Made by a program: the position numbers and the translations under genes
DNA from: Terriglobia bacterium
GTDB taxonomy: Bacteria; Acidobacteriota; Terriglobia; 20CM-2-55-15
DNA: 64,000 bases
Assembly: GCA_965198225.1 (NCBI GenBank)
Contig: CBDAOY010000007.1
Span: 128,001 to 192,000, forward strand
Direction: 5' to 3'
The notes under the pieces: generated by a model
The model's input: the letters and a program-made list of their open reading frames with translations, nothing else
What the model was told of the DNA's origin: nothing
Databases searched by the model: none
Shown: in pieces, positions 1-19,556 of the stretch
Position numbering within the stretch: the first letter of the stretch is position 1
Layout: every line of letters begins with the position of its first letter

Positions 1-199
1 TTCCCCCGCGGGCGGACTTGAAGACGAGCTGACTTCCGTCAGGCGAGAGGTCGAACTCCTCGATCCAGGTAGTTTCCGCCAGCGCGGGCTCCGATAGCGG
101 CTTCCCGCCACTGACGGTCTGGCCTTCGACGTCGGGGACCAGGGCGAGCAAAAGAGCGAACATCATGAATTCGAAGGCGCGTGCTTGACGCCCGTCCAT
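1..199 (-). CDS. 5' part of a TolB-like (PD40) / S9 peptidase-family protein, runs off the window edge
   Basis: Not in the ORF track. ATG at 199 follows an AAGGAGG RBS. Manual translation MDGRQARAFEFMMFALLLALVPDVEGQ...ALAETTWIEEFDLSPDGSQLVFKSARGG closely matches ALAETVWVEEFDVSPDGNLIAYKSAKSG of the 30135..32171 protein. Confidence 0.75.
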   Translation of the reverse strand, partial: MDGRQARAFEFMMFALLLALVPDVEGQTVSGGKPLSEPALAETTWIEEFDLSPDGSQLVFKSARGG

Positions 200-215
200 T
201 GGCGGCCTCCTTACA

Positions 216-254
216 GAAAAAAGAAAGGGGAGGCGTCTGCCTCCCCTTTCTTTC
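216..254 (-). terminator. Intrinsic terminator/attenuator hairpin downstream of TBDR-1
   Basis: AAGAAAGGGGAGGC-GTCT-GCCTCCCCTTTCTT stem-loop with a U-tract on the minus strand. Confidence 0.8.
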
Positions 255-275
255 ACGAAATAACGCGACCCGGGA

Positions 276-3200
276 TCAGAAGCTGAGCTTGATCGCGAGC
301 TGGATCTGACGGTTGTCCCGCGCCCGGCTGATCACTCCGAAGGTCGAAGAGTTCTGGATCCGGTTCGGGATTCTCCACTGTGGATGGTTCGTCGCGTTGA
401 AGAACTCCGCCCGGAACTGGATCGCGTCGGCGTTCTCACCGACCGCGAAGTTCTTGTAGACGGCCAAGTCCAGCTGGTTGGTCGGCGGCCCACGGAGAGC
501 TCCGCGTCCCGCGTTGCCGATCGTCCCGGTTGGCGGGGTTGCGAACGCGCTGGTGTTGAACCACTCCGAGGCGTCGCCGCCACCGGCCTTGGAATCGCCC
601 AGCAGGTTCGGTCGGTCCTGACCGACTCCGGTACGGCTGTTGTCCCCACCCAGCCCCGGCGTGAACGGCTGGCCGGAGGAGTAGGTGTAGATCGTGTTGA
701 GCTGCCAGCCACGGGCCAGCGCGCCGGCGGCTCCGTCCATGCCCTCACCCAATGGCAGCAACCAGGTGCCGGCGAAGGTCAACCGATGCGTCCGGTCGAA
801 GATCGACGGTCCGCGCTCCAGGAAGAGCCGGGTGTTGTCCATCGGGCTCGCACCGCCGCCGAGTCCGCTGCTGCCCGAGTTGTCGTCGATCGACTTCGAC
901 CACGTGTAGGCCTGGAGGAACGAGACGCCGTTGGCGAACCTCCGATCGATGCTCTCCTGGAACGAGTGGTAGTTCGAACTGGCACTGTCCTCGAGCCAAC
1001 CGATGTTGCCGAACCGCGAATCAGGCCGGCGAGCTGCCGTCGGCGCCCACCCTGAGATGTCGGTTCCCTGGCCGAGGTCCGAGCCGGCGATCGCCTGGTT
1101 GACGTTCCGGGTCCGGGTGAGCTTGTTCCCCTTGCTCCCCGCGTAGCCGATCTCCAGGACCGTGGAGTTGGTGAGCTCACGCTGGACGTTCAGGTTCCAC
1201 TGCATCATGTAGCTCGTCCGCAGCTTCGGGTTGACACCGCGGACCGTGAAGGACGAGGCGCCGACGACCAGGTCGTCCGGGAACGGGTCCTCGAGCGTCA
1301 TCTCCGGTGTGCGGGTGTCGTCGTCGGCCCCAATCGTCTGTGTGATGACGTACGGGAACCCGCGCTTGTAGCTATGGGTCTTGTTCGCCAGCACCGGGAC
1401 GTAAAACACCCCGCCACCGCCGCGAAGGACGGTCCGGCCGTCTCCCGCCACATCATAGGCGAAGCCCATCCGGGGACCGAAGTTGTTGAAGTCCATCGCG
1501 TACCCGCCCCGTGACAGGCTACCGTCCGCGACCGCGAAACCGGGGAACGTGTCCACGATCGGCTGGATATCCGGCTGGAAGCCTGAGTCCCCGAGTTTAA
1601 CGGCGAGCTGACGATCCGGCTGGTAGGACGCCTTCCGGTCGTGCTTGTCGTAACCGGCCGTCTGCGTTTCCCAGCGCATCCCGAGGTTCAGGGTCAGCCG
1701 GTCCGTGACGTCCCAGTCGTCCTGGAAGTATCCCGAGAAGTGCGTGGACCGCTCGTAGTTGACGATGTCGCCCTGGTTCCGGATCGTGATGTTGGGGAGG
1801 CCGAGCAGGGTGTCGCCCACGGAGTTGCCGGTGTAGCGGCCGTCGAAGCGAAAGTCTCCGGCCGGGAACACGATCAGGAAGAGGTTCATCGCCGTCCGGC
1901 GGTACTCGAACCCGAATTTCATCTGGTGGTTGCCCGTCGTGTACGAGAGGTTGTTGGTGAAGCTCGTGTGGTTGTCCCACCGGATGTGCGGCGCGGCCGA
2001 GCCGGCCGCGCTGTTGTAGCCGGTCAATCGGACCAGCGGCGGGCCCTTGAGGTCGTCCCGGAAGTCGGGTTCCTCGACCACCAGGACACAGCAGATACCC
2101 AGCTGTTTCTCGATTCCCTGGTCCCGCGCTTCGGCGATCAGGCCGCCCTTGATCCGGGTGAAGCCCAACCGGAACTCGTTGACCAGGTTGGGTGAGAAGA
2201 TATGCGTCTGGTTGAACGTCCCGGCCTGGGACAACGTATCCAGGAACGTGCCGTAGTTGGGAAGCGTCGCTCCCGACCGAAACGGCTCCAGGCGATCCTG
2301 ATCCCATATCGAATAGCGGACGAACAGGCTGTCGGAGTCGCCCCAGCTCGTGTCGAACCGGCCCGTCCAGTTCTCGGTGTCGGACTTCAGGTTGTAGGCC
2401 CCATTGAAGTTGGCGGCTGCTCCCGGCACGTTTTCGGCCGGGTAGAGGTCGACCATGTTCTGGCCGATCTGACTGAACCGGCTGGCGGGAATGATATTAC
2501 CCGGGAACGGGTTGCCGGTCGTCGGATCCATGAGCGGCGTCGGCAGCATCGCCGAGAAGTCGCCGCTGCGGAACGCAGTCTCGGGCACCTTCCCCGTCCC
2601 GCTCTGCGCCTGGCGAATCGACGTGGCGTCGAAGGAGAAGAAGAAGAAGGCGGTGTCCCTGATGATCGGTCCGCCGATCGTGCCGCCGTACTGGTTCCGG
2701 CGGAACGGCCGCTTCGGGGTGCCCTTCGGGTTGAAGTAGTTCCGGGCGTCGAAGATGTCGTTCCGGACGAACTCAAACGCCGATCCGTGGTACGCGTTCG
2801 TGCCCGACTTGGTCGAGACGTTGATCAGGCCGCCGGCGGCCCGCCCGAATTCGGCGCTGAAGCTGCTGGTCTGCACCTTGAACTCCTGGACCGAGTCGAT
2901 CCCCGGGACGATGATCAACTGGGCGTTGGCAATGTCGTTGTTGTCGACACCGTCGAGCAGGAAGTTGTTGAACTCCTCCCGAGCGCCATTGGCGTGCATC
3001 GAGCCCTGCTGCCCTTCGAGGTTGCTGCCCTCGACGACGGGCTGGACGCCCGGCGTCAGGACCGCGAGCTGCAGGAAGTCCCTACCGTTGAGCGGGAGCT
3101 CGGTCACGCGCTGCGTGTCGATCACCTGGCCCAGCGCGGAGGTGTCGGTTTCGATCAGCGGCGCGTCCGCGGTGACCTCGATCGTTTCGGTGACCTGGCC

Positions 3201-3527
3201 GACCTGGAGCTCGAAGTCGATGCGGGCGTTACGGTCGACTTGCACCTGGACCCCGCTCCGGATCTCGGTCCGGAACCCGGGGAAGGCCGTCTGCACCGTG
3301 TAGGTGCCGGACGGCAGGAGCGGGAAGTTGTACCGACCCGTCTCGTTGGTCAGGCCTGTCCGGACCTGGCCGGTGGCATCACTCGTAACGGTGATCTCGA
3401 CGCCCGGAAGCACGGCTTCCGATGCGTCGCTGATTCGTCCTTCAATCGATCCGGTGATGCGCTGCCCATACAGCGTGATCGGTAGCAACACCAGCAGGGC
3501 AAAGATCCCTGCGTTTCGAATCTTCAT
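276..3527 (-). CDS. TonB-dependent receptor, Oar-like, with N-terminal carboxypeptidase-regulatory-like domain (TBDR-1)
   Basis: Signal peptide MKIRNAGIF... after an AGGAGG RBS (ATG 3527). Motifs LPLNGRDFLQL, NNFLLDGVDNN, SVQEFKVQTSSFSAEFGR, TKSGTN, NNFGPRMGFAYD. C-terminal RQIQLAIKLSF ends in Phe. Confidence 0.92.
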   Translation of the reverse strand: MKIRNAGIFALLVLLPITLYGQRITGSIEGRISDASEAVLPGVEITVTSDATGQVRTGLTNETGRYNFPLLPSGTYTVQTAFPGFRTEIRSGVQVQVDRNARIDFELQVGQVTETIEVTADAPLIETDTSALGQVIDTQRVTELPLNGRDFLQLAVLTPGVQPVVEGSNLEGQQGSMHANGAREEFNNFLLDGVDNNDIANAQLIIVPGIDSVQEFKVQTSSFSAEFGRAAGGLINVSTKSGTNAYHGSAFEFVRNDIFDARNYFNPKGTPKRPFRRNQYGGTIGGPIIRDTAFFFFSFDATSIRQAQSGTGKVPETAFRSGDFSAMLPTPLMDPTTGNPFPGNIIPASRFSQIGQNMVDLYPAENVPGAAANFNGAYNLKSDTENWTGRFDTSWGDSDSLFVRYSIWDQDRLEPFRSGATLPNYGTFLDTLSQAGTFNQTHIFSPNLVNEFRLGFTRIKGGLIAEARDQGIEKQLGICCVLVVEEPDFRDDLKGPPLVRLTGYNSAAGSAAPHIRWDNHTSFTNNLSYTTGNHQMKFGFEYRRTAMNLFLIVFPAGDFRFDGRYTGNSVGDTLLGLPNITIRNQGDIVNYERSTHFSGYFQDDWDVTDRLTLNLGMRWETQTAGYDKHDRKASYQPDRQLAVKLGDSGFQPDIQPIVDTFPGFAVADGSLSRGGYAMDFNNFGPRMGFAYDVAGDGRTVLRGGGGVFYVPVLANKTHSYKRGFPYVITQTIGADDDTRTPEMTLEDPFPDDLVVGASSFTVRGVNPKLRTSYMMQWNLNVQRELTNSTVLEIGYAGSKGNKLTRTRNVNQAIAGSDLGQGTDISGWAPTAARRPDSRFGNIGWLEDSASSNYHSFQESIDRRFANGVSFLQAYTWSKSIDDNSGSSGLGGGASPMDNTRLFLERGPSIFDRTHRLTFAGTWLLPLGEGMDGAAGALARGWQLNTIYTYSSGQPFTPGLGGDNSRTGVGQDRPNLLGDSKAGGGDASEWFNTSAFATPPTGTIGNAGRGALRGPPTNQLDLAVYKNFAVGENADAIQFRAEFFNATNHPQWRIPNRIQNSSTFGVISRARDNRQIQLAIKLSF

Positions 3528-3894
3528 CTTGTTTCCTCCTTCATCTTCACTCTTAGCTTCGTGCAGGGACCATGACGGCGGCAACGCGGTCCGGAGACAT
3601 ACTGTCTCCCGTTGGACGCGCTGCGTAGCGTCACATTCCCACGGCCGAAACGGTCCGACGACCGAAACGGTACCTCGTTCTAAGAAAGCCTGGCGAACCA
3701 GGCGAATCTCGGGCGACCATACACCGATCGCTGTTGGGTAGTCAACCTTGACAGATCAAGATGGGTCGAGTTGGATCAAACTCACGGGCCGAGATAGATC
3801 GAACGACGGTATCAGCAATAGATCGGAGGTGATAGACGGCAGTGTCGGGGCGGCGATGTGGGTTTCCGGAGGCCAGCACTTATTCTCCCTCTTT

Positions 3895-5589
3895 TCAGGG
3901 CTCGCGCACCTTCAGGAGCGTGTTGATCTCGACATTATCCAGCCTGCTGGTGCGGCCCGAGGGCCAGAGGATCTCGACCTCTTCGACGCGTTGGGCGTCC
4001 CCGAGTCCGAAATGGAGCCGGAGGTCGTTCTGAGAGACGTAGGCGCCACCGGAACGCACCTGGCTGACGAGCGTCCCGTCTTCGGTCGTGACGCTCACGC
4101 GTGCCCCGATCGCTGACCGGTTGCTTGCCCTGCCTTCCAGCTCCAGAATGATCCAGTTGCCTGCCGTTTCGGATCGGTTCGACAGGAGTATCGCCCGTCC
4201 GTCGATCTGGCTGACGAGCACATCCAGGTCGCCGTCGTTGTCGATGTCGCCTGCGACAACCGCTCTCGCGCTGAGGAGGCCGACGCCTGGAAAGGCCGCC
4301 GGCCCGACTTCCCCGAAGCGGCCTCCGACGTTTCGGAATAGTTGCAGCGGCTGCCGGTAGGCCGTTCCGATCGGGTGCTCGTCTATCTGAGGATAGATGT
4401 GACCGTTGGCGACGAGGACATCCCGCAGGCCGTCGTTGTCGAAGTCTTCAGCCAAAAGGCCCCAGCCAAGCATCGCGATAGAGGGCCGGGCTAATCCCGC
4501 ACGCGAAGACTGATCGCTGAACAGCATGTTTCCTTCGTTCCGGTAGAGGGTGTTGTAGTCGTCCGAGAAATGCGTGACGATCAGGTCCGACCGACCGTCG
4601 TTGTCGTAATCGGCGACGGCCACACCCATACCGGCCTGCGAGCGGCCGTCCTCGCTGTAAGCCACGCCGGCTTGAAGCCCAATGTCCCTGAAACGGCCGT
4701 CGCCCAGGTTGTGGAACAGGTTGTTCGGTGCTGAGTCGTTGGCGAGGAAGAGATCCGGCCAGCCGTCGTCGTCGAAGTCCTCGAAGACCGCAGTGAACGT
4801 GTAGAGAACCTCGGCGTCTTCCAGACCCGCTTCCGCTGTCACGTCGCTGAACGTACCGTCCTGGTTGTTCCGGTACAGGACGTTGCGGGCTCCCGGAATT
4901 CCGGCCGGTCCGCAGAAGACCGGGATGCCCTTGTACCCGCACGCTTCATCGCTTCGGGATGATGTCGCCAGATCGAACTCCAGGTAGTTGGCCACGTACA
5001 GGTCCAGCCAGCCATCTCGATCGTAGTCGCTGAAAGCAGCGCCCGTGCCGTAGCCCGTATCGCCGACCCCGGCTGCTGCTGTTACATCCGAGAATGTTCC
5101 GTCGGTGTTATTGCGGTATAGGACATTCGATCCGTAGTTGGTGATGTAAATGTCGGTCCACCCGTCATTGTCGTAATCGGCCGCGGCCACTCCAATTCCC
5201 CAACCCCGGTCGCCGACGTCCCCCGCTCCGGTGACGTCGGTGAACCTTCCGTCACCATTGTTGCGGTAGAGGGCGTTGCTTGGAGCGTCGCCGTTTCCCG
5301 ACGAGGCCAGGTGTTCCCGCGTCGAGCCGTTGACCAGGTAAATGTCGATGAAGCCGTCCCGATCGTAGTCCAGGAATGCGGCGCCGCTGCCGTTGACGTC
5401 GGTGATGTGTCGCTTTTCGGGAGCACCGAACGTGTTCGTGAACCGGATGCCCGACTCGGACGTGATGTCTTCGAAGACTATTGCCGGTGGATCTTGCGCG
5501 GCCACCCCGAACGTCGCCGCCAGTAGGAGGACTATGACCCGGCCGCATCGGTGTCCCATCGGTTTCCGGATCGCGTCGAGTGATTTCAT
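3895..5589 (-). CDS. CRTAC1-family protein (FG-GAP/VCBS beta-propeller + ASPIC/UnbV domain)
   Basis: Many DxDxDG Ca-binding repeats (DYDRDG, DYDNDG, DFDDDG, DIDNDG). C-terminal SNRSAIGARV...LHFGLG...WPSG ASPIC/UnbV signature. Signal peptide. Confidence 0.9.
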   Translation of the reverse strand: MKSLDAIRKPMGHRCGRVIVLLLAATFGVAAQDPPAIVFEDITSESGIRFTNTFGAPEKRHITDVNGSGAAFLDYDRDGFIDIYLVNGSTREHLASSGNGDAPSNALYRNNGDGRFTDVTGAGDVGDRGWGIGVAAADYDNDGWTDIYITNYGSNVLYRNNTDGTFSDVTAAAGVGDTGYGTGAAFSDYDRDGWLDLYVANYLEFDLATSSRSDEACGYKGIPVFCGPAGIPGARNVLYRNNQDGTFSDVTAEAGLEDAEVLYTFTAVFEDFDDDGWPDLFLANDSAPNNLFHNLGDGRFRDIGLQAGVAYSEDGRSQAGMGVAVADYDNDGRSDLIVTHFSDDYNTLYRNEGNMLFSDQSSRAGLARPSIAMLGWGLLAEDFDNDGLRDVLVANGHIYPQIDEHPIGTAYRQPLQLFRNVGGRFGEVGPAAFPGVGLLSARAVVAGDIDNDGDLDVLVSQIDGRAILLSNRSETAGNWIILELEGRASNRSAIGARVSVTTEDGTLVSQVRSGGAYVSQNDLRLHFGLGDAQRVEEVEILWPSGRTSRLDNVEINTLLKVREP

Positions 5590-6836
5590 CGGGGTCGCGG
5601 CCGGCTCATGGCACGGCCTTCCGCCTCGCGGATCTGTCGATCCAGCTGCCGGAATCGTTCCAGGGCGGCCTCGGCCTCGGTGGTGTTGCCGACCTGCCGG
5701 TAGGCCCGCGCGAGCAGGTACAGGGCTCGATGTCTTTGGGAATCATCGTCGGGGAGGTCCGCGAGGATGTCGGGAAGGTCCCCGAGGATCTCGATCACTT
5801 CCTCGTGTCGATCCAACCGGCCCAGCGCCACGGCCTTTTCGATCCGCGTCGCAGGGTTGTCGGGATCGAGCGCCAGGGAGCGGTCGAACCACTCGAGAGC
5901 TTCGTCGTCGTCACCTGTCTCGAGGGTTAGACTGCCGATTGCGGTCAACGCTTCACTCGACCTGGCGTCCAACCTCAAGGCCGTTTCCAACCCCTCGAAG
6001 GCCTCATCATACTTACCGATGCCGCGGGCGGCGTACCCCAGCCACAGGTGTCCTTCCGCGTTGTCCGGAGCCGCGGCGACCATCGCCGAAAAGGTGTCGT
6101 GTGCCTCCACGGGTCGATCCAGCCCGAACCATGCCTGTCCCAGTCGGAAGAGCATCCGAGGGGACCGATCGCGAGCCGGTACGGATGAGAGCAATTCAGC
6201 GCTCGGCGCAAACGCTCCCTTTTCGTTGAGTAGTGTCGCGAGTTCCAAGAAACCGGAGAACCCGGGCGGCGGCGACCTTCGAAAGCGTTCCAGGTAGGGC
6301 CGCGCCCGATCGTATTCCTCCAGTTCGATCCACGCCCGAGCCAGCGAGTATGAAATCAAGAACTGCTGGCCGAGGCCGGCCTCCGCGCGTTCGAGCCGAT
6401 CGATCGCTTCGCGGAACTGCCGCTGCTGAATCGAGACCATGCCTGCGTTCAACGATGCCCGCGCGTTATCCGGGTCGATCTCCAGCGCGCGATTCAAAGC
6501 TCCCAGGGCACCGTCCAGGTCACCCGAGCGCCGGAGCAGATCCCCGAGATTGTTCCACGCATCCCCGAAACCGGGCTGTACCGAAACGGCCTGGCGGTAG
6601 GCGGCGATTGCCCCGGAAGTTCGTTCGAGCCGCGCACGGCTGATACCCAGCAGATACCAGGCTTCGGCGTTGTCGGGATCCGTGCCGACCAACCGCTCTG
6701 CCGCCTGTTCCGCTGCCGCCAGGTTGCCGCCGCCGATGAGCCGTCGAACTTCGTCGAGCGACTGTCCCGCGGCCTGCACGGAGGGTGCGGTACACACGAC
6801 CAGGGTCAACAGGAATCGAATCGAGAAGCGGGCCAT
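5586..6836 (-). CDS. Secreted tetratricopeptide-repeat protein
   Basis: Signal peptide and repeated TPR motifs (AEAWYLLG, AWNNLG, EGHLWLG, ALYLLARAY). Stop overlaps the next start (ATGA). Confidence 0.88.
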   Translation of the reverse strand: MARFSIRFLLTLVVCTAPSVQAAGQSLDEVRRLIGGGNLAAAEQAAERLVGTDPDNAEAWYLLGISRARLERTSGAIAAYRQAVSVQPGFGDAWNNLGDLLRRSGDLDGALGALNRALEIDPDNARASLNAGMVSIQQRQFREAIDRLERAEAGLGQQFLISYSLARAWIELEEYDRARPYLERFRRSPPPGFSGFLELATLLNEKGAFAPSAELLSSVPARDRSPRMLFRLGQAWFGLDRPVEAHDTFSAMVAAAPDNAEGHLWLGYAARGIGKYDEAFEGLETALRLDARSSEALTAIGSLTLETGDDDEALEWFDRSLALDPDNPATRIEKAVALGRLDRHEEVIEILGDLPDILADLPDDDSQRHRALYLLARAYRQVGNTTEAEAALERFRQLDRQIREAEGRAMSRPRPR

Positions 6837-6948
6837 CCGAACGCTTTCCCCCGGTCTCCCTCGAATCCGGACGGCATGGTCGCGGCATTCAGGGAGGACT
6901 TCGAAATACTATATCGCAAGGTGTTGCGGAGAGTTTCGGTGTGTCGGT

Positions 6949-9900
6949 TCACCGCTTCGGACTTTGATGTTCGAAACGATAAGCGGGCACGCCCCGGCCC
7001 GAGACGAGGCGCGTATTCCATTCGAGCCGATAGCCGACGTCCGCGTCCGTCATCGCCTCGTTTCCCCCGGAGGTATACGGATACGGGCTGTCGCTGTGAC
7101 GCGGGTGCGGGGTGACAGTTTGGGCGAAAGCCTCGTAGGAATCCATGTCCTTCTCGAAGCCGTCGGCGTAGAAGAAGTAGTCCCTCTTCCAGCCCGGTCC
7201 CGGTTCTTCCAGCTGGCTAGGGTCGAAATCCAGGGCGAGTTCTTCTCCCGAACCGAATATCACGAAATGGTCCTCAGCATCCTCCAGGAGTGGCCGAACG
7301 TTACCGAACGCCGTGTATGCGCCCCGGTGCTTCGCAAAAGGCCCCGTCGGGCTGAGGTCATCGTAGACGAAGGCTATGTCGCTCCGAGGACTGCCGGCTT
7401 GCGAACGGGGGTATCCGCGCCATGCAAGCGTTGCCGCCGACAGCGGGATCTCCCTCATTCGCACGGGGACTTCGTCGGAAGTCGTATCGATCATGATCCG
7501 GTCCCAGTAGATCTCCAGGTTTGTCGTGATTCTGATGCGCCGGAATCCGTCGGGCAGCAGGCCGGTCAGATCGCGGGTCATCGTGCGTGCAAGCCCGGCA
7601 GGGAATCCCATGTCGTCCAGCACGCGGACCCACCGGCCCGATGTGTCCAGAGCCTCCACGTACGGCGCTATCGGTTCGATTCCGGACTGGAGCGCCGCGA
7701 ACACGGCCGTCGGTGTGAAGTAGTCGATGAAACCTCGCATCAGAAGCCGAACCGGCTTCGTGCCCTCGATCGGGCCAAGGTCCAATTCCAGACTGTGGGT
7801 TTCCGCGAGTCCGTGGAAGGGGAGGGATTCGAATCCCGTTACGTAAAGCCGATCCTGCTCGAGCAGGCTGGGGAGCACATCAACGCCGTCTTCGTCCCAG
7901 GCCCCAAGCGGCGGGTGGGCGTCCCGACTCGCGATGATCTCGAACGACGGGAATGGCGGTCCCGATGCGAAATACTCGTTCGGGTAGACCTCCGCGTCGG
8001 CGGGATGATCGAGCGCAAACAGGCGGACCTGGTCCAGATAGACGAGTTCCTCCATCGGTTCCGATAGTCGAAAGCTGAGCCGCCCGTCGCGCGCGCGCAC
8101 GCTGTCGCCGTCGACGCGGATGTATTCGGTCGGGTCGGAAACGTTGCGTTGGCCCGGAGCGACCCAGTGTCCCGCTATCCCTGCTCCGATCGCGTCGGTG
8201 ATGAATTCGTATCGGTCGCCGTTCCATGCGAACAGGACCGGGCAGGAGCTGCCACGCCGGTCGATCTCGGTGACCAGGTGGGTCTGACGGGCTTCCGGCT
8301 GCGTTTCGTCCTGGAGGACCCCGGTCGGCCACAGCAGGCGCACCGTGTCGACTTCGGTGTTCGGTCCCAATCCGGCGATGACGGACGTGGAGCCCTGTCC
8401 GAGGTACCCGGATCCGCTCTGGACTTCCCACTTCTGTCGATGTATTCCCGCGAATATCTCGACCTTGGTGCCGATGGCGCTCTTGCTGTCGTTCAAACCC
8501 TCGAGGTCGATCCGTATCCACGCGTTGGCGTTTCCCCCGTCATTGCGGAGCAGGTGAACTGAGCCGCCGTTTTCGGTCAGGAGCAAGTCGGTATCGCCGT
8601 CCTCGTCGTAGTCGGCCGACACCAGGGCTCGCGGACGCTCGACGTCGAGCCGGTCCAGACCGACCGTCTGTGTCATGTCTTCGAAGCGATTGTTGCCGAG
8701 GTTGCGTAGCAGGCGCGCCTCCGCTCCGTCGGGTCCTTCACCGGCCCCGGCCAGGTCGATCCAGCCGTCGTTGTCGTAGTCGAGAGCGGCAAGTCCCCAG
8801 CCCTTGTCCCATCCGAACTCCGGCAGAGCGACCCGCTCGAACGTCCTGCCTTCGACGTTACGCCAGACGGTGATACCGGGCGAGGCCCAGTGTCCGAAAG
8901 CAACGTCCATCCATCCGTCCTTGTTGAAGTCGGCGACAGCGACTCCGGCAGTCGGCGCAACCTCCCCCCAGGGTTCGCGCATCTCGAACGCGCCTTCGCG
9001 TGGGTTGACGAACAGTGTGGGAGCCCTTTGCCAGCCGCTCACCACGAAGTCGATCGCGCGGTCGTTGTTGATGTCGGTCGCGACGGCGCCGACGCCGGGT
9101 GCAGCCCCCCCAAGTCCGGACTCGGAGGTCTGTTCGGTGAATGTCCCGTCCCCGTCGTTCCGCCAGAGCATGTTGGACGGTGCGGGCCCCTCAAACGGGA
9201 ACTCGAAGGAGGCGCCTTCAGCGGGACGAGGGAAGTTCACGAAGCGAGCCACGTAAAGATCCAGATCTCCGTCGTGATCATAGTCAACGAAGGAGAGCCC
9301 GGCGGACATCCCGTCGGCGGCAATGCCGGAACCCCCTGTCCGGTCCTCGAACCGGCCGTCGCCGGTGTTACGGAACAGTGTGACCCGCTCTCCGATGGCT
9401 GTTGCCAGGTCGGTGTGACCGTCATTGTCGTAATCGCCCGCGACGCAGCCCAGACCCAGCCCGGACACACCGACCCCTGCCGCGGCCGTCGCGTCCTCGA
9501 AACTTCCTCCTCCGCGGTTGCGGTACAGGGCGCTCGACGCGCCGGCCGCACCGTTGGGCAGGAACAGGTCGATGCTGTTGTCACCGTCGTAGTCGAGGAA
9601 ACACGCTCCCGGTCCCAGCAGTGTCGCCACGCCCCGATCCGCTTCGGCCGACTCGGACGTATGCGTGAAATCCAAACCCGCTTCGGACGCGACCGAGGCG
9701 AACTGTACCGGGATGGTGTCGGCAGGGGCTTCTGAAACCGCTCCGACCTCCTGCGCAAGCGAGTATCGTCCCTGGTCCCCGTAGGCAAGCCCCATCGGTA
9801 CTCCGATGTTCTCCCGGGTCAGGAGCTGGAAACGCTCCAGGTGTTGCCGCGCGAGATCGCTCTCCCCCTGACGCTGGTAGGCCCGCGCCAGTCCGAACTC

Positions 9901-10434
9901 CGCCGACGCATGGTAGGGCACCCGGTCGATCGCACGCTGGTAGGCTGCGACAGCTTCGGGGAACCGCTCGAGCTGGTCATACATCAGACCGCGCAGGTAG
10001 TGAGTGTCCGCATCATCGGGGTCGAGAGCCAGGGCCCGATCGAACGCCTCGATCGCCGGTTCCGGTTCTCCCAGGTAGCGGTAGGTCAGACCCAGGTTGT
10101 ACCAGGCCCTTGCGTCGGCCGGCGATTCTTCGACCATCCCGAGCAGAAGGTCTCTCGCAGGTTCGAACCGTTGCAGGTTGTAGAGCGCGATGGCCTGGTT
10201 CAGACGAGCCGCCGTAAGGGACGGGTCCAGCGCCTCGGCCTGTTCGAACATTTCGAGCGCATCTTCGACCCGCTGCTGAGAGAGGTACGCGATTCCCAGG
10301 TTGTTCAGACGGATGGCTCCGGTTTCTGCGTCCTCCTCATTCTGCGGTGCAGCGAGCGAAAGGCTGAGCGTCAACGCCAGAGCAAGCGCCATGCCGAGCG
10401 TCGAGAATCGAATTGTCACGCTTTTCTCCTCCAC
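6949..10434 (-). CDS. TPR + FG-GAP repeats + ASPIC/UnbV + uncharacterised C-terminal (SCP-motif) domain protein
   Basis: Signal peptide, N-terminal TPRs and DxDxDG repeats. SAIGTKVE...GLG...WPTG is followed by about 430 aa beginning RRGSSCPVLFAWNG. Confidence 0.88.
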   Translation of the reverse strand: MEEKSVTIRFSTLGMALALALTLSLSLAAPQNEEDAETGAIRLNNLGIAYLSQQRVEDALEMFEQAEALDPSLTAARLNQAIALYNLQRFEPARDLLLGMVEESPADARAWYNLGLTYRYLGEPEPAIEAFDRALALDPDDADTHYLRGLMYDQLERFPEAVAAYQRAIDRVPYHASAEFGLARAYQRQGESDLARQHLERFQLLTRENIGVPMGLAYGDQGRYSLAQEVGAVSEAPADTIPVQFASVASEAGLDFTHTSESAEADRGVATLLGPGACFLDYDGDNSIDLFLPNGAAGASSALYRNRGGGSFEDATAAAGVGVSGLGLGCVAGDYDNDGHTDLATAIGERVTLFRNTGDGRFEDRTGGSGIAADGMSAGLSFVDYDHDGDLDLYVARFVNFPRPAEGASFEFPFEGPAPSNMLWRNDGDGTFTEQTSESGLGGAAPGVGAVATDINNDRAIDFVVSGWQRAPTLFVNPREGAFEMREPWGEVAPTAGVAVADFNKDGWMDVAFGHWASPGITVWRNVEGRTFERVALPEFGWDKGWGLAALDYDNDGWIDLAGAGEGPDGAEARLLRNLGNNRFEDMTQTVGLDRLDVERPRALVSADYDEDGDTDLLLTENGGSVHLLRNDGGNANAWIRIDLEGLNDSKSAIGTKVEIFAGIHRQKWEVQSGSGYLGQGSTSVIAGLGPNTEVDTVRLLWPTGVLQDETQPEARQTHLVTEIDRRGSSCPVLFAWNGDRYEFITDAIGAGIAGHWVAPGQRNVSDPTEYIRVDGDSVRARDGRLSFRLSEPMEELVYLDQVRLFALDHPADAEVYPNEYFASGPPFPSFEIIASRDAHPPLGAWDEDGVDVLPSLLEQDRLYVTGFESLPFHGLAETHSLELDLGPIEGTKPVRLLMRGFIDYFTPTAVFAALQSGIEPIAPYVEALDTSGRWVRVLDDMGFPAGLARTMTRDLTGLLPDGFRRIRITTNLEIYWDRIMIDTTSDEVPVRMREIPLSAATLAWRGYPRSQAGSPRSDIAFVYDDLSPTGPFAKHRGAYTAFGNVRPLLEDAEDHFVIFGSGEELALDFDPSQLEEPGPGWKRDYFFYADGFEKDMDSYEAFAQTVTPHPRHSDSPYPYTSGGNEAMTDADVGYRLEWNTRLVSGRGVPAYRFEHQSPKR

Positions 10435-10459
10435 GCCAGGCCCGTGGTGCCCGGCGTCG

Positions 10460-12145
10460 TCATTGATTCCCTTCGTAGGCTTCGGTGGCTACGATTCCTG
10501 CTCCCTCGCGTACGGTAATCGTCCGACCCGCCCGGACTCCCCCGAGTTCCTCGGAGCGGCCGCTCGGCCATCGAATCTGGATCCGGTCCACGCGCGTTCG
10601 AGCGCCGAGGCCGAACGTCAGCACGAGCTCGCTCGACGAGAGGTAGCTCGATCCGCTGCGCACCATCTGCCACTGCGTTTCGGTCCCGGTGCGGACTTCG
10701 ACGACTGAACCAATGCCGGCCCGGTTGGAACGCGCACCTTCGAGCCGAACGCGAATGCTGTTGTTCTGGTTCTGCTCGTTGCGGATCAGGGCCGCCGGGC
10801 CGCCGTTCGTCATGAGGAGCAAATCGAGATCCCCGTCGTTGTCGATGTCGGCGTGAGCAGCGCCCCGTCCGACGCGTGGGGCCGCCAGGTCATCGCCGAG
10901 CGTTGCCGTCACCTCACGAAACCCGTTTCCGGCGAGGTTGCGGAAGACATGGGGCGGTTGGGCATGCTTGATGCGCGTCTGGATTCTTTCGAACGCTTCC
11001 TCGATATGACCGTTCGCGACGAATATGTCGAGCCACCCGTCCAGGTCGTAGTCGAAGAAAAAACACGCAAACGCCAGCGTGAGCAGACTCCGCCGACCCA
11101 CGTCGGAGCGGGGGGCCTCGTCAACATAGAGCCCGTTACCCTCGTTGTGATAGAGACCCAGCATTTCGTTCGAGAAATTGCCGATGACGACACTCGGGTA
11201 GCCGGAGCGGTCATAATCGGCCGCGTCGATTCCCATGCCCGCCCGTGCGAGTCCGTCCTCGCTGAAGGCGATGCCTGCGAGCATTCCTCTTTCGGTGAAC
11301 GACCCCTCCCGTGTGTTGACCCACAGCCGGTTCGGCTCCGTGTCGTTGACGATGACCAGGTCGGGCCAATCGTCCCGGTTGTGGTCGAGGACGGCGATGC
11401 CGAGCGCCTTCGACGAAGGGTCGAGCAGGCCGGCTTTTTCGGTGGCGTCCTCGAAGGTGCCGTCTCCCTGGTTGCGCCACAGCCGGGGCGGCACGCCGTC
11501 GTAGGACTCGGGGGTGCAGTAGGACTTGGCGTTACCGTCGATCGTGCAGAAGATGTCGTTCTCGATGGACCACTCCACGTAGTTGGCCACCAGCAGGTCC
11601 AGGAAACCGTCGCGGTCATAGTCCAGCCATGCGGCCCCCGTGCTGAAATCGTTCGCATTCCCCAGATCGGCTGTATGGGTAGTGTCAGTGAAGGTCCCGT
11701 CGCCTTCGTTGCGGAACAATCGGTTCGGCCCGACCGCGGTCACGAACAAGTCCATGTTGCCGTCGTTGTCGTAATCCCCGACAGCCGTCCCCATGCCGTA
11801 GATCGCGACATCGAGGCCGCTCGATGATGTGACGTCGGTGAAGGTCCCGTCACCCTCGTTGCGGTAGAGGCGTGGCGTGGAGGGCGGGCCCGGACGTTCG
11901 GGCCAGTTCAGGCCGTTCACCAGGAAAATGTCGGGCCACCCGTCGTTGTCGTAATCGATAAACGCGCAGCCGGGTCCCATCGTTTCCGGCAGGTAACGGG
12001 CCCCGAACGCGCCGCTGTTGTGGGTGAACCGGATTCCTGCTTTCACGGTGACGTCGGAGAACGCAGGAGGCGGTCCCTGCGGCTCGAGCGTCGGAGCGGG
12101 AACCAGCGTCCAGACAGCGACTGCGGAGAGCGTGAGGAGCCTCAA
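10460..12145 (-). CDS. CRTAC1-family protein (FG-GAP + ASPIC/UnbV), paralog of 3895..5589
   Basis: DYDNDG/DYDRDG repeats, GSSYLSSSELVLTFGLG, WPSG. Signal peptide. TTG start overlaps the upstream stop. Confidence 0.9.
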   Translation of the reverse strand: MRLLTLSAVAVWTLVPAPTLEPQGPPPAFSDVTVKAGIRFTHNSGAFGARYLPETMGPGCAFIDYDNDGWPDIFLVNGLNWPERPGPPSTPRLYRNEGDGTFTDVTSSSGLDVAIYGMGTAVGDYDNDGNMDLFVTAVGPNRLFRNEGDGTFTDTTHTADLGNANDFSTGAAWLDYDRDGFLDLLVANYVEWSIENDIFCTIDGNAKSYCTPESYDGVPPRLWRNQGDGTFEDATEKAGLLDPSSKALGIAVLDHNRDDWPDLVIVNDTEPNRLWVNTREGSFTERGMLAGIAFSEDGLARAGMGIDAADYDRSGYPSVVIGNFSNEMLGLYHNEGNGLYVDEAPRSDVGRRSLLTLAFACFFFDYDLDGWLDIFVANGHIEEAFERIQTRIKHAQPPHVFRNLAGNGFREVTATLGDDLAAPRVGRGAAHADIDNDGDLDLLLMTNGGPAALIRNEQNQNNSIRVRLEGARSNRAGIGSVVEVRTGTETQWQMVRSGSSYLSSSELVLTFGLGARTRVDRIQIRWPSGRSEELGGVRAGRTITVREGAGIVATEAYEGNQ

Positions 12146-14976
12146 GGGGCGCCTCCCACGTCTGTCCCTACCGATTCGGCGTTCGCAATGGGGTCGAGTG
12201 GGATCGAGATGTGTTCGTGGATCGGCTGACGTTCATTGTTGTCCGCGGGATGTGCGAGGCGGTAGGGCCCAGTGATCGCCTGGGCCGACTCGTCGGCCTT
12301 GAAGCGAAGGTAACGCTGTTGGTGCTCCACTGCTCTCTCTTCGTCGCCCAGCCCGTTGTAGGAGAGCATCAGGTTGTAGTGCGCCCGCAGATCTTCAGGA
12401 TCGATGCGCAGGACGGCTTTCAGCTCGTCGACCGCGTCCTGGTACCGGCGTTGGAGGAACAGAATGCGACCCGTCTCGTTGCGGGCGACCCGATCGCGTG
12501 GATACTGCCGTGTGACGATCGCGAGATGGGACAAGGCCTCGTCGAACGACCCCTCCGAGCTCAAAACCTGAGCGTAGAAGAAGTGCGCCCGTGCAAGTTC
12601 GGGGCCCAGCACCAGCGCGCGTTCCAGAACTTCGCGGGCTCCTTCGAGGCTCCCCTCCCGCAGTCGCGCCCGCCCGATGTTGATCCACCCATCGGGGTTG
12701 GCAGGCGCGATCTCCGTGGCTTTGAGGAAGGCGACTTCGGCGCCCTTCAGGTCTCCCTGCAACAGCAGGCCGATCCCGTAATCGTTCCAACGTTCCCAAT
12801 CAGAGTCTTCGAGTACGACTCGAGCTGCGGGCGGGTCCGAATCGGCGTCCGTCACCCGCAGGGTGAGCGAGGCCTCCGCCATCGTGACGCTCGGAAGTTC
12901 AGGTATGCGTTTGAGGCTGCCCGATACCCCGGACACGTCTCCCGTGAACAGCCAGGAACGGTCGTCGTAGTGGGGCGTGACTTCCGAATCGTCGTCTGTC
13001 GGATCCCGCGCACCCGCATAGGAGAAACCAGTGTTCCACCAGCTGAACTTCCGGTAATGCAGCCGTGCCTCCAACGTGATTTCGTCGCCGGCCGTCTCCG
13101 GTATGTGGACCCGGTAGTGAACCGTGTCGGCAGCTCCGGGCGGGATGAGGCGGGCATACACCAGCGCTCGGGCGGCCCACGCATTCCGTTTGTTGATGGG
13201 ATTCCCGTGCGCGTCGAGGGAAAGGGAACGGTAGAAGTGAGCGCCTTCTTCGACCGGTCCCTTGCCGTCGTCTTCAACCCTGCCGCTCCAGAACAGCACC
13301 TGACCGTTGTTGTCTGTCGCGATCAATTCCAGCCACACGTCGAAGGCATCGACGGTTCCTGCCGGGAAAAAATGGCCGACTTTCCGGGTACGCACGACCA
13401 CGTCCACGCGAAGAGTGTCTCCGCGGCGCAGAAGCGGACTGACGCGATCCAGCGGCGCCGTCACCGGCACGGCGTCCGGGACGATTCCGAGAATCATGGC
13501 CGCAGGCGACTCCTCCCCAACGGCGAAGGTCGTCGCTGCTTCGATGGCCCCCGGCGACCCGGTCTGAATCTCGGTGCGGGCCGGGGAAATAGCAAAAATA
13601 TCCAGGCTGACGACGTCGTCCTGAAGGAAACGGATGGTCTCTTCGAGCTGTTCGCGGTCCTGGTTAGCGGTGGGCAGGGCCGTATTTGCGGCCGGGAAGC
13701 GGTGCGAGTGAACCCGGCCTTCCCGATTCCCTGAATCATCCGAGGCGACGAGAGGCATATGACAGTCGACGCAGTCCATCGGTTCGGGCGGGTAGTAGAA
13801 GGAGCGCGCACCCTCGCCGGAGACCCCGCTCGCCTGCCAGTTGTCGAAATCGTTGAACCCACGAATCCAGCGGTACTGGTTGACGGGCGCGTCGAGGTGG
13901 ACTTTATGACAGCTCGAGCAGAACTCCCCCGTCTGAGCGCGCACGAAGGGTTTCATGAACGTGCGGCGATGCGGTTCCGGGTTGACCCGGACGACGAAGT
14001 CGTGCGCGGCTCGAACCAAACTGTTATCACTCGTCGCCAGGTCGTAGAGATCCGGATAATCCAGGGTATAGCCGCCCTGACCCATCGTCCCCTCCACTTC
14101 CGTCACCGAGTGACACATCACGCATCCCAGCCCGGCGTGAGCTTCGGGTTGATCGACGATCTCACCGACGGGGGTGTCCATCATTCCTGAGAACAGAAGG
14201 GCGGGATCGTGACACCCCCCGCACCACTTCGAAGGTGTGACGCCGACGACTTCCTGCATGTATTCGATGCTCTTCCGGTACCACTGGTTGTTGAAGGATG
14301 AAAACCGATGTGCCGAGCTCGACCATTGGTCGTAGATGTCGGCGTGGCAGCGTGCGCACTGATTCGATCCCATGAAGAACCGGGCGGGAATCCGGCCCCC
14401 GTCACTCGTCCGCGCGGCACTGGGGAAGAACAGGCCCGAGGGCCCGTCTCCCTCCCCCTCCATCTCGGCGGGCGGCATGGGTGGGTTTTCGATCCGGTGC
14501 TCGTTCTGCCAGCCCAACTCACGCGTCGCCCAAAGCGAAAGACACAGTGCCGCCGTCGCGGCGAACACTAGACCGAGCCGAAAAGCGGTTCGGCCCGATG
14601 AGGCGGCGAGCCAGCCTGCGCGCCCGAGCCCCGTCGCGATCAGGAAGGCAACGGCCAGTACAGACGTGCCCATATGGGCGCTCAGCCAAGGTGAAAACGA
14701 TCCCGCGGTACCTGTAAAGATCAACGCCACGCCGAGCACCGAGCCTAGAGTCGCAGTGATCGAGGCGGGTATCGACGCGAACGGGCGCACCCTGCCGCGG
14801 ACGAAACCGACGAGCAGAAGGGCTGCGAAAGCAACTCCCGCCCCGAGGTGGAGGAGCAGGAGAGCGACGTTCGTCAACGTCGGAGAGGGTGCGGCGTAGA
14901 GAAGAGCTCCAGTGAGCGACAGCACCGCTATAAGCGCTGGGGCTATCTTCTGCTTTCGACCGGTTTGCTCACGCAT
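12142..14976 (-). CDS. Membrane-anchored multiheme cytochrome c (c554-like, 5 CxxCH) with C-terminal TPRs
   Basis: CARCH, CGGCH, CVMCH, CSSCH, CVDCH motifs. About 5 N-terminal hydrophobic helices. C-terminal TPRs (RWNDYGIGL, AHYNLML). Confidence 0.88.
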   Translation of the reverse strand: MREQTGRKQKIAPALIAVLSLTGALLYAAPSPTLTNVALLLLHLGAGVAFAALLLVGFVRGRVRPFASIPASITATLGSVLGVALIFTGTAGSFSPWLSAHMGTSVLAVAFLIATGLGRAGWLAASSGRTAFRLGLVFAATAALCLSLWATRELGWQNEHRIENPPMPPAEMEGEGDGPSGLFFPSAARTSDGGRIPARFFMGSNQCARCHADIYDQWSSSAHRFSSFNNQWYRKSIEYMQEVVGVTPSKWCGGCHDPALLFSGMMDTPVGEIVDQPEAHAGLGCVMCHSVTEVEGTMGQGGYTLDYPDLYDLATSDNSLVRAAHDFVVRVNPEPHRRTFMKPFVRAQTGEFCSSCHKVHLDAPVNQYRWIRGFNDFDNWQASGVSGEGARSFYYPPEPMDCVDCHMPLVASDDSGNREGRVHSHRFPAANTALPTANQDREQLEETIRFLQDDVVSLDIFAISPARTEIQTGSPGAIEAATTFAVGEESPAAMILGIVPDAVPVTAPLDRVSPLLRRGDTLRVDVVVRTRKVGHFFPAGTVDAFDVWLELIATDNNGQVLFWSGRVEDDGKGPVEEGAHFYRSLSLDAHGNPINKRNAWAARALVYARLIPPGAADTVHYRVHIPETAGDEITLEARLHYRKFSWWNTGFSYAGARDPTDDDSEVTPHYDDRSWLFTGDVSGVSGSLKRIPELPSVTMAEASLTLRVTDADSDPPAARVVLEDSDWERWNDYGIGLLLQGDLKGAEVAFLKATEIAPANPDGWINIGRARLREGSLEGAREVLERALVLGPELARAHFFYAQVLSSEGSFDEALSHLAIVTRQYPRDRVARNETGRILFLQRRYQDAVDELKAVLRIDPEDLRAHYNLMLSYNGLGDEERAVEHQQRYLRFKADESAQAITGPYRLAHPADNNERQPIHEHISIPLDPIANAESVGTDVGGAP

Positions 14977-15348
14977 CTGTCGTTGCGAACCGGGGTGGCC
15001 CGCGGGTTGGTCACACCGGGGAAGACTGTCGGATGAAACTCACAGGTCCGGCGAACCTCGCCCGCCGAGTATGCGTGCCGTAGCAATGGACATCCGAGAC
15101 CGATGCTACCCCTGTGATTCGTTTTCGAGGCCTGCGTTTCTCGCCGATCAAAAATATCATGCGGGGCGCGAGGGAGGAACCCTTCCCTCGGTTCTCGGCC
15201 GCACTCCGACTTCAGTTGCGGAGCCAGGTGCCGGACCGCGTCGATCAACTTTTTCGGGACTTCCAATCGTTGCTAAAGCACCCGCTGTTGCCTTAGACTG
15301 TCGCCGCTTGAATCACCCACTCAAACCGACGACTCGGGAGAAAACGCC

Positions 15349-16458
15349 ATGAAAAGTATCGAAATCGACCGAAGCAAACAGCTCAGAGATCAGCCTGAAA
15401 CAGGACACAACCGGTGGCATCCGGACATATCGCCTCTCCTGGAGGTCGATGAAGGCGAGGAGGTCGTCCTGGAGACGCGTGACGCGTTGGACGGCCAGTT
15501 TCAGAACTCGACTACCCCGGAAGACTTCGCCAATATTGAAGTCGGTCTGATCCATCCGCTGACGGGTCCGGTCTTCGTGAAAGGCGCCGCGCCCGGTGAC
15601 CTGCTGGAGGTCGACTTCGTCGAGATCCGTCCGGTCGAGTTCGCGTGGACGGCCATCATCCCCGGCTTCGGATTCCTGCGCGATCGTGAGGACATAGCGC
15701 CGTTTTTCGTGCCGTGGACACTCGCCGACAATTTTGCGACTTCCCCCGCGCTTCCGGGCGTCCGGATTCCCGGGGCCCCGTTCATGGGCATGTCCGGTAT
15801 TGCGCCGTCGCATGCCCAGGTGGCCGAGTGGAAGGCGCGGGAGGACCGGGTGATTGCAGGCGGCGGCGTCGCTCTCCCGCCGGATCCCGGGGGTTCCGTG
15901 CCGCCGACCGGGATACCGGCCACTGAAGGGCTGCGGACTCTACCTCCTCGTGAGGTCGGGGGGAACTTCGACGTCAAGCAGCTCACGGGCGGGTCGAAAC
16001 TCTTGTTGCCCGTCGCGGTCGATGGTGCGCTGTTCTCGACAGGGGACGGTCACTTTGCCCAGGGTGACGGCGAAGTCTGTGTGAGCGCTGTCGAAATGGG
16101 CGCGACGGCGACCGTCCGTTTTCGCGTGCTGAAGGGCGAAGCGGAACGGCATAACATCAACCGGCCGCGGTTCACGAGGGAGGACTACTGGACGGACCCG
16201 CAGATGGCAGCGCCGCGCAAATTCACCGCGACGATGGGGATGCCCATTCGCGACGACGGCGAGAATGAGGGAGAAAACCTCACCCTGGCCTGCCGCGACG
16301 CCGTCCTCGGCATGATCAACTTGCTCGGGGAGCGCGGGTGGACGCGCGAACAGGCTTATGTCATCTGCAGCGTTGCCGTGGATCTGAGAATCAGCAATGT
16401 CGTGGACGTGCCCAACTACGTGGTTTCGGCTCTCCTGCCCGAGGACATATTCGTATAG
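15349..16458 (+). CDS. Acetamidase/formamidase family protein
   Basis: HNRWHPDI, HPLTGPVFV, GGNFDVKQL, GDGHFAQGDGEVC, AYVICSVAVDLRISNVVDVPN motifs. Confidence 0.9.
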   Translation: MKSIEIDRSKQLRDQPETGHNRWHPDISPLLEVDEGEEVVLETRDALDGQFQNSTTPEDFANIEVGLIHPLTGPVFVKGAAPGDLLEVDFVEIRPVEFAWTAIIPGFGFLRDREDIAPFFVPWTLADNFATSPALPGVRIPGAPFMGMSGIAPSHAQVAEWKAREDRVIAGGGVALPPDPGGSVPPTGIPATEGLRTLPPREVGGNFDVKQLTGGSKLLLPVAVDGALFSTGDGHFAQGDGEVCVSAVEMGATATVRFRVLKGEAERHNINRPRFTREDYWTDPQMAAPRKFTATMGMPIRDDGENEGENLTLACRDAVLGMINLLGERGWTREQAYVICSVAVDLRISNVVDVPNYVVSALLPEDIFV

Positions 16459-16470
16459 CTTGTCTCTGCA

Positions 16471-16507
16471 GAAGAGGGCGGCAGCAGGGGCTGCCGCCCT
16501 CTTTTTT
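16471..16507 (+). terminator. Rho-independent terminator
   Basis: AAGAGGGCGGCAGC-AGGG-GCTGCCGCCCTCTT stem-loop ending in a T-tract. Confidence 0.88.
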
Positions 16508-16889
16508 CGCCTTCAGGTTGCCGAGTGGCCAGTTCCCGATTTCCGCGAAACGTGGCGCTTACCGCAGCCGCATATATATAAATAGACATAGATCAATATA
16601 CATATGTATAGCTGCTTACATTTGTGTCTTTAGGTAAATTCGGCCATCCTACCTCGTTTGATAGAATAGCCCCCGGCTGCATATCTCATTCACTCGATAG
16701 AGGAAACTCTGAAGCGACTCCGGTGTCGCGGAACCGCAAGCGAGGGTTGTGTGAAGGTGAGTCTTTCAACCAGGCTCTGGCGGCAAAGCGCAAGCTTCAT
16801 CGGCAGCCACAAATAGGCCAGTCGTCCCAAGGCCGCCGTGGCGACGGACGCTTTTGACAACAAAAGGTTTGTAGCCTCGACAAAAAGAG

Positions 16890-16919
16890 TTGACGCTGGG
16901 TCGGACGTGCTCACATACT
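16890..16919 (+). promoter_or_regulatory. Candidate sigma70 promoter for the first DUF1592 operon
   Basis: TTGACG-N18-CATACT about 170 bp upstream of the ATG at 17090. Confidence 0.35.
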
Positions 16920-17089
16920 GGCCCAAGTTTGTTCTTGATCTGCAGTCATTAAGGTAGATTTAAGTTTCTTGATGAGGGATCACCGATCTAGACCGGGCGG
17001 ACAAGGGTCTGCTTGATCACGCGATGGGCGAGAGCACCCGTTCGTGTTCTCGAGGGCTTGAGAAGCGACCCGTAGAGAGGGAGGACTTG

Positions 17090-19474: not shown

Positions 19475-19556
19475 GGTCACAACCGGGGCCGACGTGATTG
19501 CGCCGGCCACGAACTATTAGCTCACTACTGATTCGGATCACCCAAGGAGGAACAGT

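Follow-up and report, generated by a model that had tools for sequence, protein, structure and literature searches.

Here, we describe a block of genes on the minus strand at the start of a 64,000-nucleotide stretch of DNA (the window) from a Terriglobia bacterium of the phylum Acidobacteriota (assembly GCA_965198225.1, contig CBDAOY010000007.1, positions 128,001 to 192,000). The block encodes a multiheme cytochrome, two proteins of the CRTAC1 family (crtA and crtB), a fusion protein related to these, a stand-alone protein of tetratricopeptide repeats (TPRs), and a TonB-dependent receptor. We find that its conserved core is the cytochrome gene together with the CRTAC1 gene behind it.

Layout and conservation of the gene block

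An earlier note on this DNA described seven co-directional genes. Six of these are complete open reading frames (ORFs) on the minus strand, while the seventh is a stub of 66 codons at the window edge. The features of the block are as follows.

12142-14976, minus strand: cytochrome, 944 amino acids (aa), with five predicted transmembrane (TM) helices, five c-type hemes, an Ig-like domain, TPRs, and a tail
14527-14976, minus strand: N-terminal membrane domain of the cytochrome, in which a bis-His heme b site probably lies toward the periplasmic face
10460-12145, minus strand: crtA, 561 aa, CRTAC1-family FG-GAP propeller with an ASPIC/UnbV domain; the constant partner of the cytochrome
6949-10434, minus strand: fusion, 1161 aa, TPRs, a degenerate FG-GAP propeller, an ASPIC domain, and a 430-residue all-beta C-terminal domain; an accessory gene
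5586-6836, minus strand: tpr, 416 aa, stand-alone periplasmic TPR protein, translationally coupled to crtB and clade-restricted
3895-5589, minus strand: crtB, 564 aa, second CRTAC1-family protein, from a separate clade and clade-restricted
276-3527, minus strand: TonB-dependent receptor, with ATG 3527 as the likely start (the ORF at 276-3584 gives 1102 aa from the first TTG)
213-255, minus strand: terminator-like hairpin with a U-run, 3' of the receptor gene, judged by folding energy against shuffled sequences
1-199, minus strand: stub of 66 codons, the 5' part of a secreted TolB-propeller protein and a paralogue of the TolB/S9 protein at 30135-32234

The domain labels proposed earlier agree with Pfam for all six complete genes. 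FG-GAP_3 and UnbV_ASPIC score above the Pfam cut-offs in crtA, crtB, and the fusion, three proteins of the block have TPR matches, and the 944-aa protein matches a c554-like heme region plus TPRs. The receptor matches the PF25183 barrel (E 3e-244), which bears out its earlier label, and has an N-terminal CarboxypepD_reg domain. The five hemes noted before are found as CxxCH motifs at cytochrome residues 207, 252, 285, 353, and 402, and the sequence also holds both of the Cys loops that had been pointed out (CGYKGIPVFC and CTIDGNAKSYC). The export signals claimed for every gene were judged from hydropathy and by-eye inspection only. Neither a lipobox nor a twin-arginine motif occurs in the first 45 residues of crtA, fusion, tpr, crtB, receptor, or stub (the cytochrome was outside this motif test). 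Features that the earlier note did not mention are two conserved membrane histidines and the Ig domain in the cytochrome, and the unannotated C-terminal domain of the fusion.

Both of the overlapping stop/start junctions that had been described are present as 4-nt overlaps, TTGA at 12142-12145 and ATGA at 5586-5589. The fusion and tpr genes are separated by 112 bp, and crtB and the likely receptor start by 367 bp. The hairpin between receptor and stub has a folding energy of -39.3 kcal/mol (z -4.7), which none of 200 shuffled sequences equaled. Thus, given these two gaps and the hairpin with its U-run, the block is not one tight unit. Base composition is uniform over the block, repeats between genes are unremarkable, and Rfam has zero matches in 1-20000. 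Promoter and terminator scans gave hits at about the chance rate (2 versus 2.3 and 12 versus 13.3, respectively), and a promoter-like site at 3745-3716 was therefore discounted. Two tandem 17-nt repeats (88% alike) lie before the receptor at 3637-3670 and could be an operator, or a product of chance. The pattern of a TPR followed by a propeller occurs three times in the block: in the TPRs of the cytochrome followed by crtA, in the fused protein, and in tpr followed by crtB.

A survey of species-representative genomes, centered on the cytochrome, gave at least 551 confirmed loci among the 587 stretches listed, and the best 80, mostly from Acidobacteriota, were kept. As 46 of these 80 belong to one close Acidoferrales-like group (the large group), counts were split by group; the labels of the other 34 reach Versatilivoraceae, Bryobacterales, Binatota, and Eiseniibacteriota. 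At the protein level, at least 7,929 of 8,000 scored candidates are relatives of the cytochrome. A CRTAC1 gene lies at most 900 bp downstream of the cytochrome, on the same strand, in 75 of the 77 loci that extend 1 kb or more beyond it (46/46 in the large group and 29/31 outside it). In the remaining three loci, the downstream flank was too short for this count. The gene-order check that the earlier note had proposed thus upholds the pairing of cytochrome and CRTAC1 genes, which overlap by 1-4 nt in 22 of the 75 pairs.

The other genes of the block are less constant. Of the 64 loci whose flank extends for 4.5 kb, 17 have the fusion gene, which is far more common outside the large group (16/26) than within it (1/38). 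A clear tpr orthologue was found in just one of the 80 loci (L001, 608 bits; two other loci match at 49 bits), and crtB orthologues in five (L001, L010, L020, L028, and L044), which group together in the tree at support 1.0. L001, the closest relative among the best 80 (77%), has the same five-gene block, followed by a transposase-like ORF instead of a receptor. This ORF pair, labeled by eye from its translation, lies directly after crtB at L001:21543-22808, with no receptor within 1.5 kb. L020 carries on one strand, in a different order, a receptor, a crtB orthologue, a rotamase-TPR protein, the cytochrome, crtA, and the fusion.

The same gene-order check goes against the receptor as a regular member. 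TonB receptors occur in 11 of the 80 loci (10/51 with full flanks), at 24-44% identity, with six on the same strand as the cytochrome and five on the opposite one. The best of them scores 367 bits, compared with 621 for a second receptor of the window itself, and they are non-orthologous. S9-like matches occur in 1/80 loci. The TolB/S9 label of the edge gene also stands only in part: the stub has no Pfam or NCBIfam match, and no peptidase domain is in view. Nevertheless, it is 64% identical over 28 N-terminal residues to the TolB/S9 protein at 30135-32234 (pairwise E 2e-10), which makes an S9 label reasonable. The second receptor (26838-30056; 37% identical to the first) adjoins that TolB/S9 gene, forming a pair like that at 1-3527 in reverse order, with no cytochrome or propeller gene beside it. 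The receptor and the S9-like gene of the block probably form a neighboring peptide- or oligomer-uptake unit, separate from the cytochrome system.

Genes that join cytochrome and CRTAC1 in one frame were sought as well; none was found in the best 120 of 1,083 longer relatives, a weak negative as that list is dominated by proteins of nearly the same length. One of 150 representatives (P0137) looks fused but reads as a frameshift run-through, with the same gene order. Evolutionary distances of cytochrome and crtA correlate at 0.94, a value that we set aside as evidence because shared descent explains it. The effective alignment depth of 31 was too low for contact analysis.

The cytochrome and its predicted complex with crtA

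The cytochrome is made up of TM helices (residues 11-150), a heme domain (about 180-455), an Ig-like domain (about 455-710), a TPR domain (about 725-895), and a conserved tail with His920 and His922. Five hydrophobic segments within residues 11-150 correspond to the five predicted TM helices. Lys/Arg values over 135 homologues are 2.6-3.1 in the N-terminus, loop 2, and loop 4, but 0.2 and 1.4 in loops 1 and 3, a bias by which the heme domain would be external and both His43 and His101 would lie toward the periplasmic face of the membrane. These histidines are kept in 128/135 and 129/135 homologues, respectively (both in 126/132 rows), and in 71/77 and 73/77 diverse representatives, in which most flanking columns vary. 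The domain therefore has two conserved TM histidines on the same side, as is characteristic of a cytochrome b-type module. A conserved TM His pair usually means bis-His heme b. We thus regard His43 and His101 as a probable heme b site.

An AF2 model of residues 160-720, built from 119 sequences and without heme, has a pLDDT of 93. Its best match is 5ZE8, the low-potential pentaheme c552 of Thermochromatium tepidum (E 3e-13), which superposes on model positions 38-547 with Z 20.9 and an rmsd of 3.7 over 337 aligned residues at 20% identity. The next match among 48,161 chains reaches Z 10.1 and covers the Ig domain only. Thus, the cytochrome shares both five hemes and a C-terminal Ig-like domain with c552, with the “PHC” proteins of cable bacteria and Geobacter, and with PtdA. 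It differs from all of these in its five-helix di-His membrane domain, its TPR domain, and its CRTAC1 partner. Furthermore, ptd/ext clusters hold porin or further multiheme genes, of which there are none in this block. In the available text of the studies describing them, PHC and PtdA proteins are assigned no function (PMC11976967; bioRxiv 2023.11.21.568154). Among 77 full-length representatives of the cytochrome family, 49 have five CxxCH motifs, while in 28 (within P0121-P0270) heme 1 is bound by CxxxxCH, so that motif counts undercall relatives as tetraheme.

A first catalytic function for the c552/MccSep fold was reported in 2026: MccSep/ExtKL of Geobacter sulfurreducens is described, in the parts of that report available, as a polysulfide reductase in which four hemes are bis-His ligated, heme 2 is catalytic and has His/Cys ligands, and an Ig-domain loop carries a selenocysteine (Sec) (PMC13510729; PDB 9WT8). 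Profile searching of the Protein Data Bank (PDB) matched MccSep chains (E 2e-4) and paired their Sec loop with cytochrome residues 534-543. A search with our alignment A2 was dominated by TPR matches, and one with a TPR-poor alignment still left the MccSep heme 4 region unaligned. The MccSep chains are not in the fold-search match lists, and their absence there excludes nothing. The position of the MccSep Sec325 is Thr541 in the cytochrome; this column holds Thr in 85/116 and Lys in 20/116, and Cys in 0 of 118 homologues. By motif spacing against two MccSep homologues from the supplement of PMC13510729, compared by eye, the distal Cys of heme 2 would correspond to Gly373 or Phe374. There is no non-motif Cys in residues 160-944, all ten periplasmic Cys lying inside heme motifs. 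NCBIfam NF040886 (MccSep/ExtKL) scores 34.8 bits against a cut-off of 250.

Exactly four non-motif histidines of the soluble core are near invariant (His223, His336, His425, and His535; 135, 134, 135, and 135 of 135), which matches the bis-His count given for MccSep in the available text. As this is one short of five distal ligands, and there is no spare Cys, heme 2 probably has an open site or an unusual ligand. The aligned Ig-domain loop, GHxxPxG in MccSep and GHxFPxGTxD here, is strongly conserved, with Asp543 kept in 134/135. Asn230, Tyr233, Lys358, Asn375, Thr541, Asp543, and His580 are conserved residues that may line the heme 2 site. Overall, the cytochrome appears to work like enzymes of the c552/MccSep fold, yet its lack of Sec and distal Cys, its low NF040886 score, and its membrane anchor set it apart from MccSep itself.

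The partner protein crtA resembles human CRTAC1 (9ETN; E 4e-19) in having FG-GAP repeats with DxDxDG motifs and a UnbV_ASPIC domain, but it is a bacterial, periplasmic, and predicted heme-protein subunit. The propeller proteins have 5-7 DxDxDG motifs each, which are predicted calcium loops. Glu54, Asp197, Cys200, Cys210, Glu213, Asp268, Arg301, Met304, and His380 are invariant in 112/112 crtA-type rows, and Cys200, Cys210, Asp268, and Met304 are also kept in 11/11 other CRTAC1 proteins. The Cys200-Cys210 pair is thereby aligned in all 123 CRTAC1 proteins examined. crtA and crtB are 42% identical. The propeller of the fusion is degenerate, with no Cys loop, Glu54, Asp268, Met304, His380, or docking loop.

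The C-terminal domain of the fusion (window 6949-8271) is strongly conserved, carries an invariant SCP motif, and has at least 6,430 relatives; most of the 120 that were listed show 56-69% conservation. Its predicted fold (pLDDT 88) includes a CBM32/35-like jelly roll at a middling Z of 8-10.8 over about 120 residues, a likeness of fold that shows no function. The domain has no Pfam match at E<=1, falls in unnamed Atlas clusters only, and has no clear whole-domain fold match. It merits a family definition of its own.

Complex prediction, as the earlier note had suggested, was carried out for cytochrome residues 456-925 with crtA residues 28-556, the heme domain being excluded for size. The pair scored 0.87, compared with 0.02 for the best of three controls. 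Among solved pairs 116/157 attain the score mark, compared with 2/215 among mismatched ones, and both counts are only approximate for the present alignments. The runs share at least 74% of their contacts, with partner pLDDT at least 90. In the predicted complex, the last TPR repeats and tail of the cytochrome (775-910) dock onto the crtA propeller at residues 288-300 and 335-346, with further contact at 198-217. PDB searches returned no comparable complex.

Proposed function and alternatives

On balance, we consider it reasonably probable that the conserved system is a quinol-linked, inner-membrane periplasmic oxidoreductase with a TPR-docked CRTAC1 subunit. It would be a two-subunit, often three-gene, enzyme that faces the periplasm and is anchored in the inner membrane. 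The five-helix domain may hold heme b between His43 and His101 and exchange electrons with the quinone pool. Electrons could then pass along the four bis-His c-hemes to heme 2, the putative catalytic center by analogy with MccSep, although without its distal Cys and Sec. The C-terminal TPRs are predicted to clamp the propeller, whose invariant polar residues and disulfide loop would probably serve to bind the substrate or to present it. The most likely direction of the reaction is that a periplasmic acceptor is reduced. Because amidase, formamidase, glutamine synthetase, and aminotransferase genes are frequent neighbors, a small nitrogen or sulfur compound is our best guess for the substrate, although a tentative one.

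Several observations weigh against this proposal. In two loci (L009 and L031) no CRTAC1 gene lies directly downstream of the cytochrome, and more than half of the loci come from a single closely related group. The membrane domain has no relevant Pfam match at E<=1, and the only lead from the Atlas is a cluster with b561 in 18% of its members (0.80). An open heme 2 and heme b binding are both inferred, the model being without heme, and candidate sixth ligands of heme 2 exist in His920 (113/135), His922 (116/135), His580 (124), Met407 (133), and Lys358 (127). The complex was modeled minus the heme domain and compared with controls unrelated to the pair, in a test that close cousins can also pass, and the conservation of its interface is only marginally above background (P 0.046 for crtA and 0.13 for the cytochrome). 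In addition, crtB has a similar docking loop, so the predicted interface may not be specific for crtA. The substrate hints from neighboring genes are weak (amidase family in 10/80 and glutamine synthetase in 9/80 loci). Finally, of the 21 loci outside the large group that have full flanks, 7 contain a receptor, and the one-strand gene set of L020 suggests that in this clade the receptor may have a looser functional link to the cytochrome system.

Among the alternatives, it is unlikely but conceivable that the cytochrome is an electron-transfer or redox-sensing hub with no catalytic heme: His920/His922 or some other residue would cap heme 2, and the cytochrome would only relay electrons to, or signal through, the docked propeller or another periplasmic enzyme. 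The conserved HxH tail, the loss of both MccSep catalytic chalcogens, and a histidine kinase/LuxR pair upstream in the large group (41/80 and 35/80) fit such a role. Unlike the four invariant histidines, however, the tail histidines give way to Tyr or Val in one in four or five diverse representatives, and the GHxFPxGTxD loop and the polar residues near it are conserved as an active site would be. The missing chalcogens could also be supplied in trans, if the cytochrome reduced the Cys200-Cys210 disulfide of the docked propeller as part of an envelope thiol-redox system. We think this improbable. It would account for the Cys pair being universal among the CRTAC1 proteins, for loop 198-217 lying partly in the predicted interface, and for a probable AhpD-type selenoprotein in 44/80 loci. 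But the pair is equally kept in crtB-type proteins and so may be structural, and the modeled loop touches the TPR tail while the 534-543 loop is outside the listed interface, an unfair test as the heme domain is not in the model. Still less probable is a role of the propeller and TPR proteins in folding or assembling the cytochrome, in place of one as functional subunits. TPR proteins do act in cytochrome c maturation, weak TPR_CcmH_CycH matches occur below cut-off, and the TPR protein of L020 bears a rotamase domain. Set against this are the invariant polar residues of crtA, which hint at a site for a ligand, the twin-arginine signal that 33/43 of the upstream crtA paralogues carry, and the fact that no such partners are reported for the soluble c552/MccSep relatives in the portions of the literature consulted.

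The earlier note had interpreted the block as an acidobacterial analogue of a SusCD-type utilization locus spanning both membranes, in which a substrate imported by the receptor would be captured by the propellers and oxidized by the cytochrome. We give this only a slim chance. The co-directional genes of the window speak for it, and so do the occurrence of all six gene types along a single strand in L020, the jelly roll of the fusion, and the receptors found outside the large group. As in Bacteroidota SusCD systems and utilisomes, a TonB receptor lies near TPR-rich, possibly carbohydrate-binding proteins. SusD is a surface lipoprotein, according to the text available in PMC11658791. Here, no block gene has a SusD match in Pfam, and tpr, crtA, crtB, and the fusion contain no lipobox. 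Pfam detects no hydrolase domain in the six complete genes, although the edge gene is probably a peptidase, and no glycoside hydrolase domain among the seven. The receptor is an occasional, non-orthologous neighbor on mixed strands, it is set off by the 367-bp gap, it is replaced by the transposase-like ORF in L001, and a receptor/S9 pair recurs in the window away from cytochrome and propellers. The SusCD-type locus was thus rejected for want of a SusD-like surface lipoprotein and of conserved receptor pairing in the cytochrome-centered loci. What survives of the earlier proposal is a TPR-held complex that couples propeller to cytochrome, supported by the confidently predicted TPR-mediated interface, without the receptor as a constant part. 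A porin-cytochrome conduit of the Mtr/Ext/Ptd type was also discarded, with one multiheme gene and no porin among the seven genes.

Within the preferred reading of a periplasmic oxidoreductase, a more specific version is rather unlikely, although worth stating: heme b and the five c-hemes would wire the quinone pool to a MccSep-like site that lacks Cys and Sec, and the docked CRTAC1 propeller, through its disulfide loop or polar pocket, would supply the missing chemistry. If this is true, bacterial CRTAC1/ASPIC-UnbV proteins might generally be catalytic or specificity subunits of periplasmic heme oxidoreductases, including those of hydrazine-synthase-like operons. In such operons, the accessible text of PMC12758564 describes a CRTAC1-family gene embedded between genes for periplasmic proteins with heme c, some of which have c554 domains. 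Those heme proteins are different ones, and no homologue of a hydrazine synthase (HZS) subunit was detected among the seven genes here. Searches of the open-licence literature in PMC and bioRxiv turned up no description of this cytochrome and no role for bacterial CRTAC1, although subscription journals and bioRxiv supplements may hold a mention.

The oxidoreductase proposal would extend the c552/MccSep fold to a membrane-bound, selenium-free branch. It also points to a concrete job for the large bacterial ASPIC/UnbV family, for which it names a partner, a predicted interface, and candidate residues for heme b binding and for the active site. Many Acidobacteriota, a phylum that is dominant in soil and poorly understood, carry the cytochrome.

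Other genes near the cytochrome

A gene of the AhpD/CMD family with an in-frame UGA in its CxYU motif was detected in 44 of the 80 loci (e.g., L058:12902-13468), and is absent from the block in the window. The position is UGA in 44/44 matches and Cys in none, and the gene is commonly called as two ORFs. It sits between the cytochrome and crtA in 8/8 inspected loci. One example, translated with the UGA as a sense codon, scores above the cut-off of TIGR01926 (102 versus 81.8 bits). This gene probably encodes a selenoprotein, and where present it adds another redox link to the proposed oxidoreductase.

In the large group, the gene immediately before the cytochrome is a second crtA-like paralogue (L002:3155-4840, and some 40 further loci), and 33 of 43 such proteins have a twin-arginine signal. 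The histidine kinase/LuxR regulator pair lies further upstream.

In the window, a formamidase-family gene (15349-16458) is divergent from the cytochrome, as it is in L001. It is followed by a perfect 14-bp inverted repeat (16472-16503) that is terminator-like on both strands. Amidase and arginine-deiminase-like genes also lie near the block, at 24673-26355 and 35057-35941. In addition, a three-gene block of DUF1592/PSCyt, DUF1552, and ankyrin genes is present in two copies, at 17024-22640 and 40534-46033.

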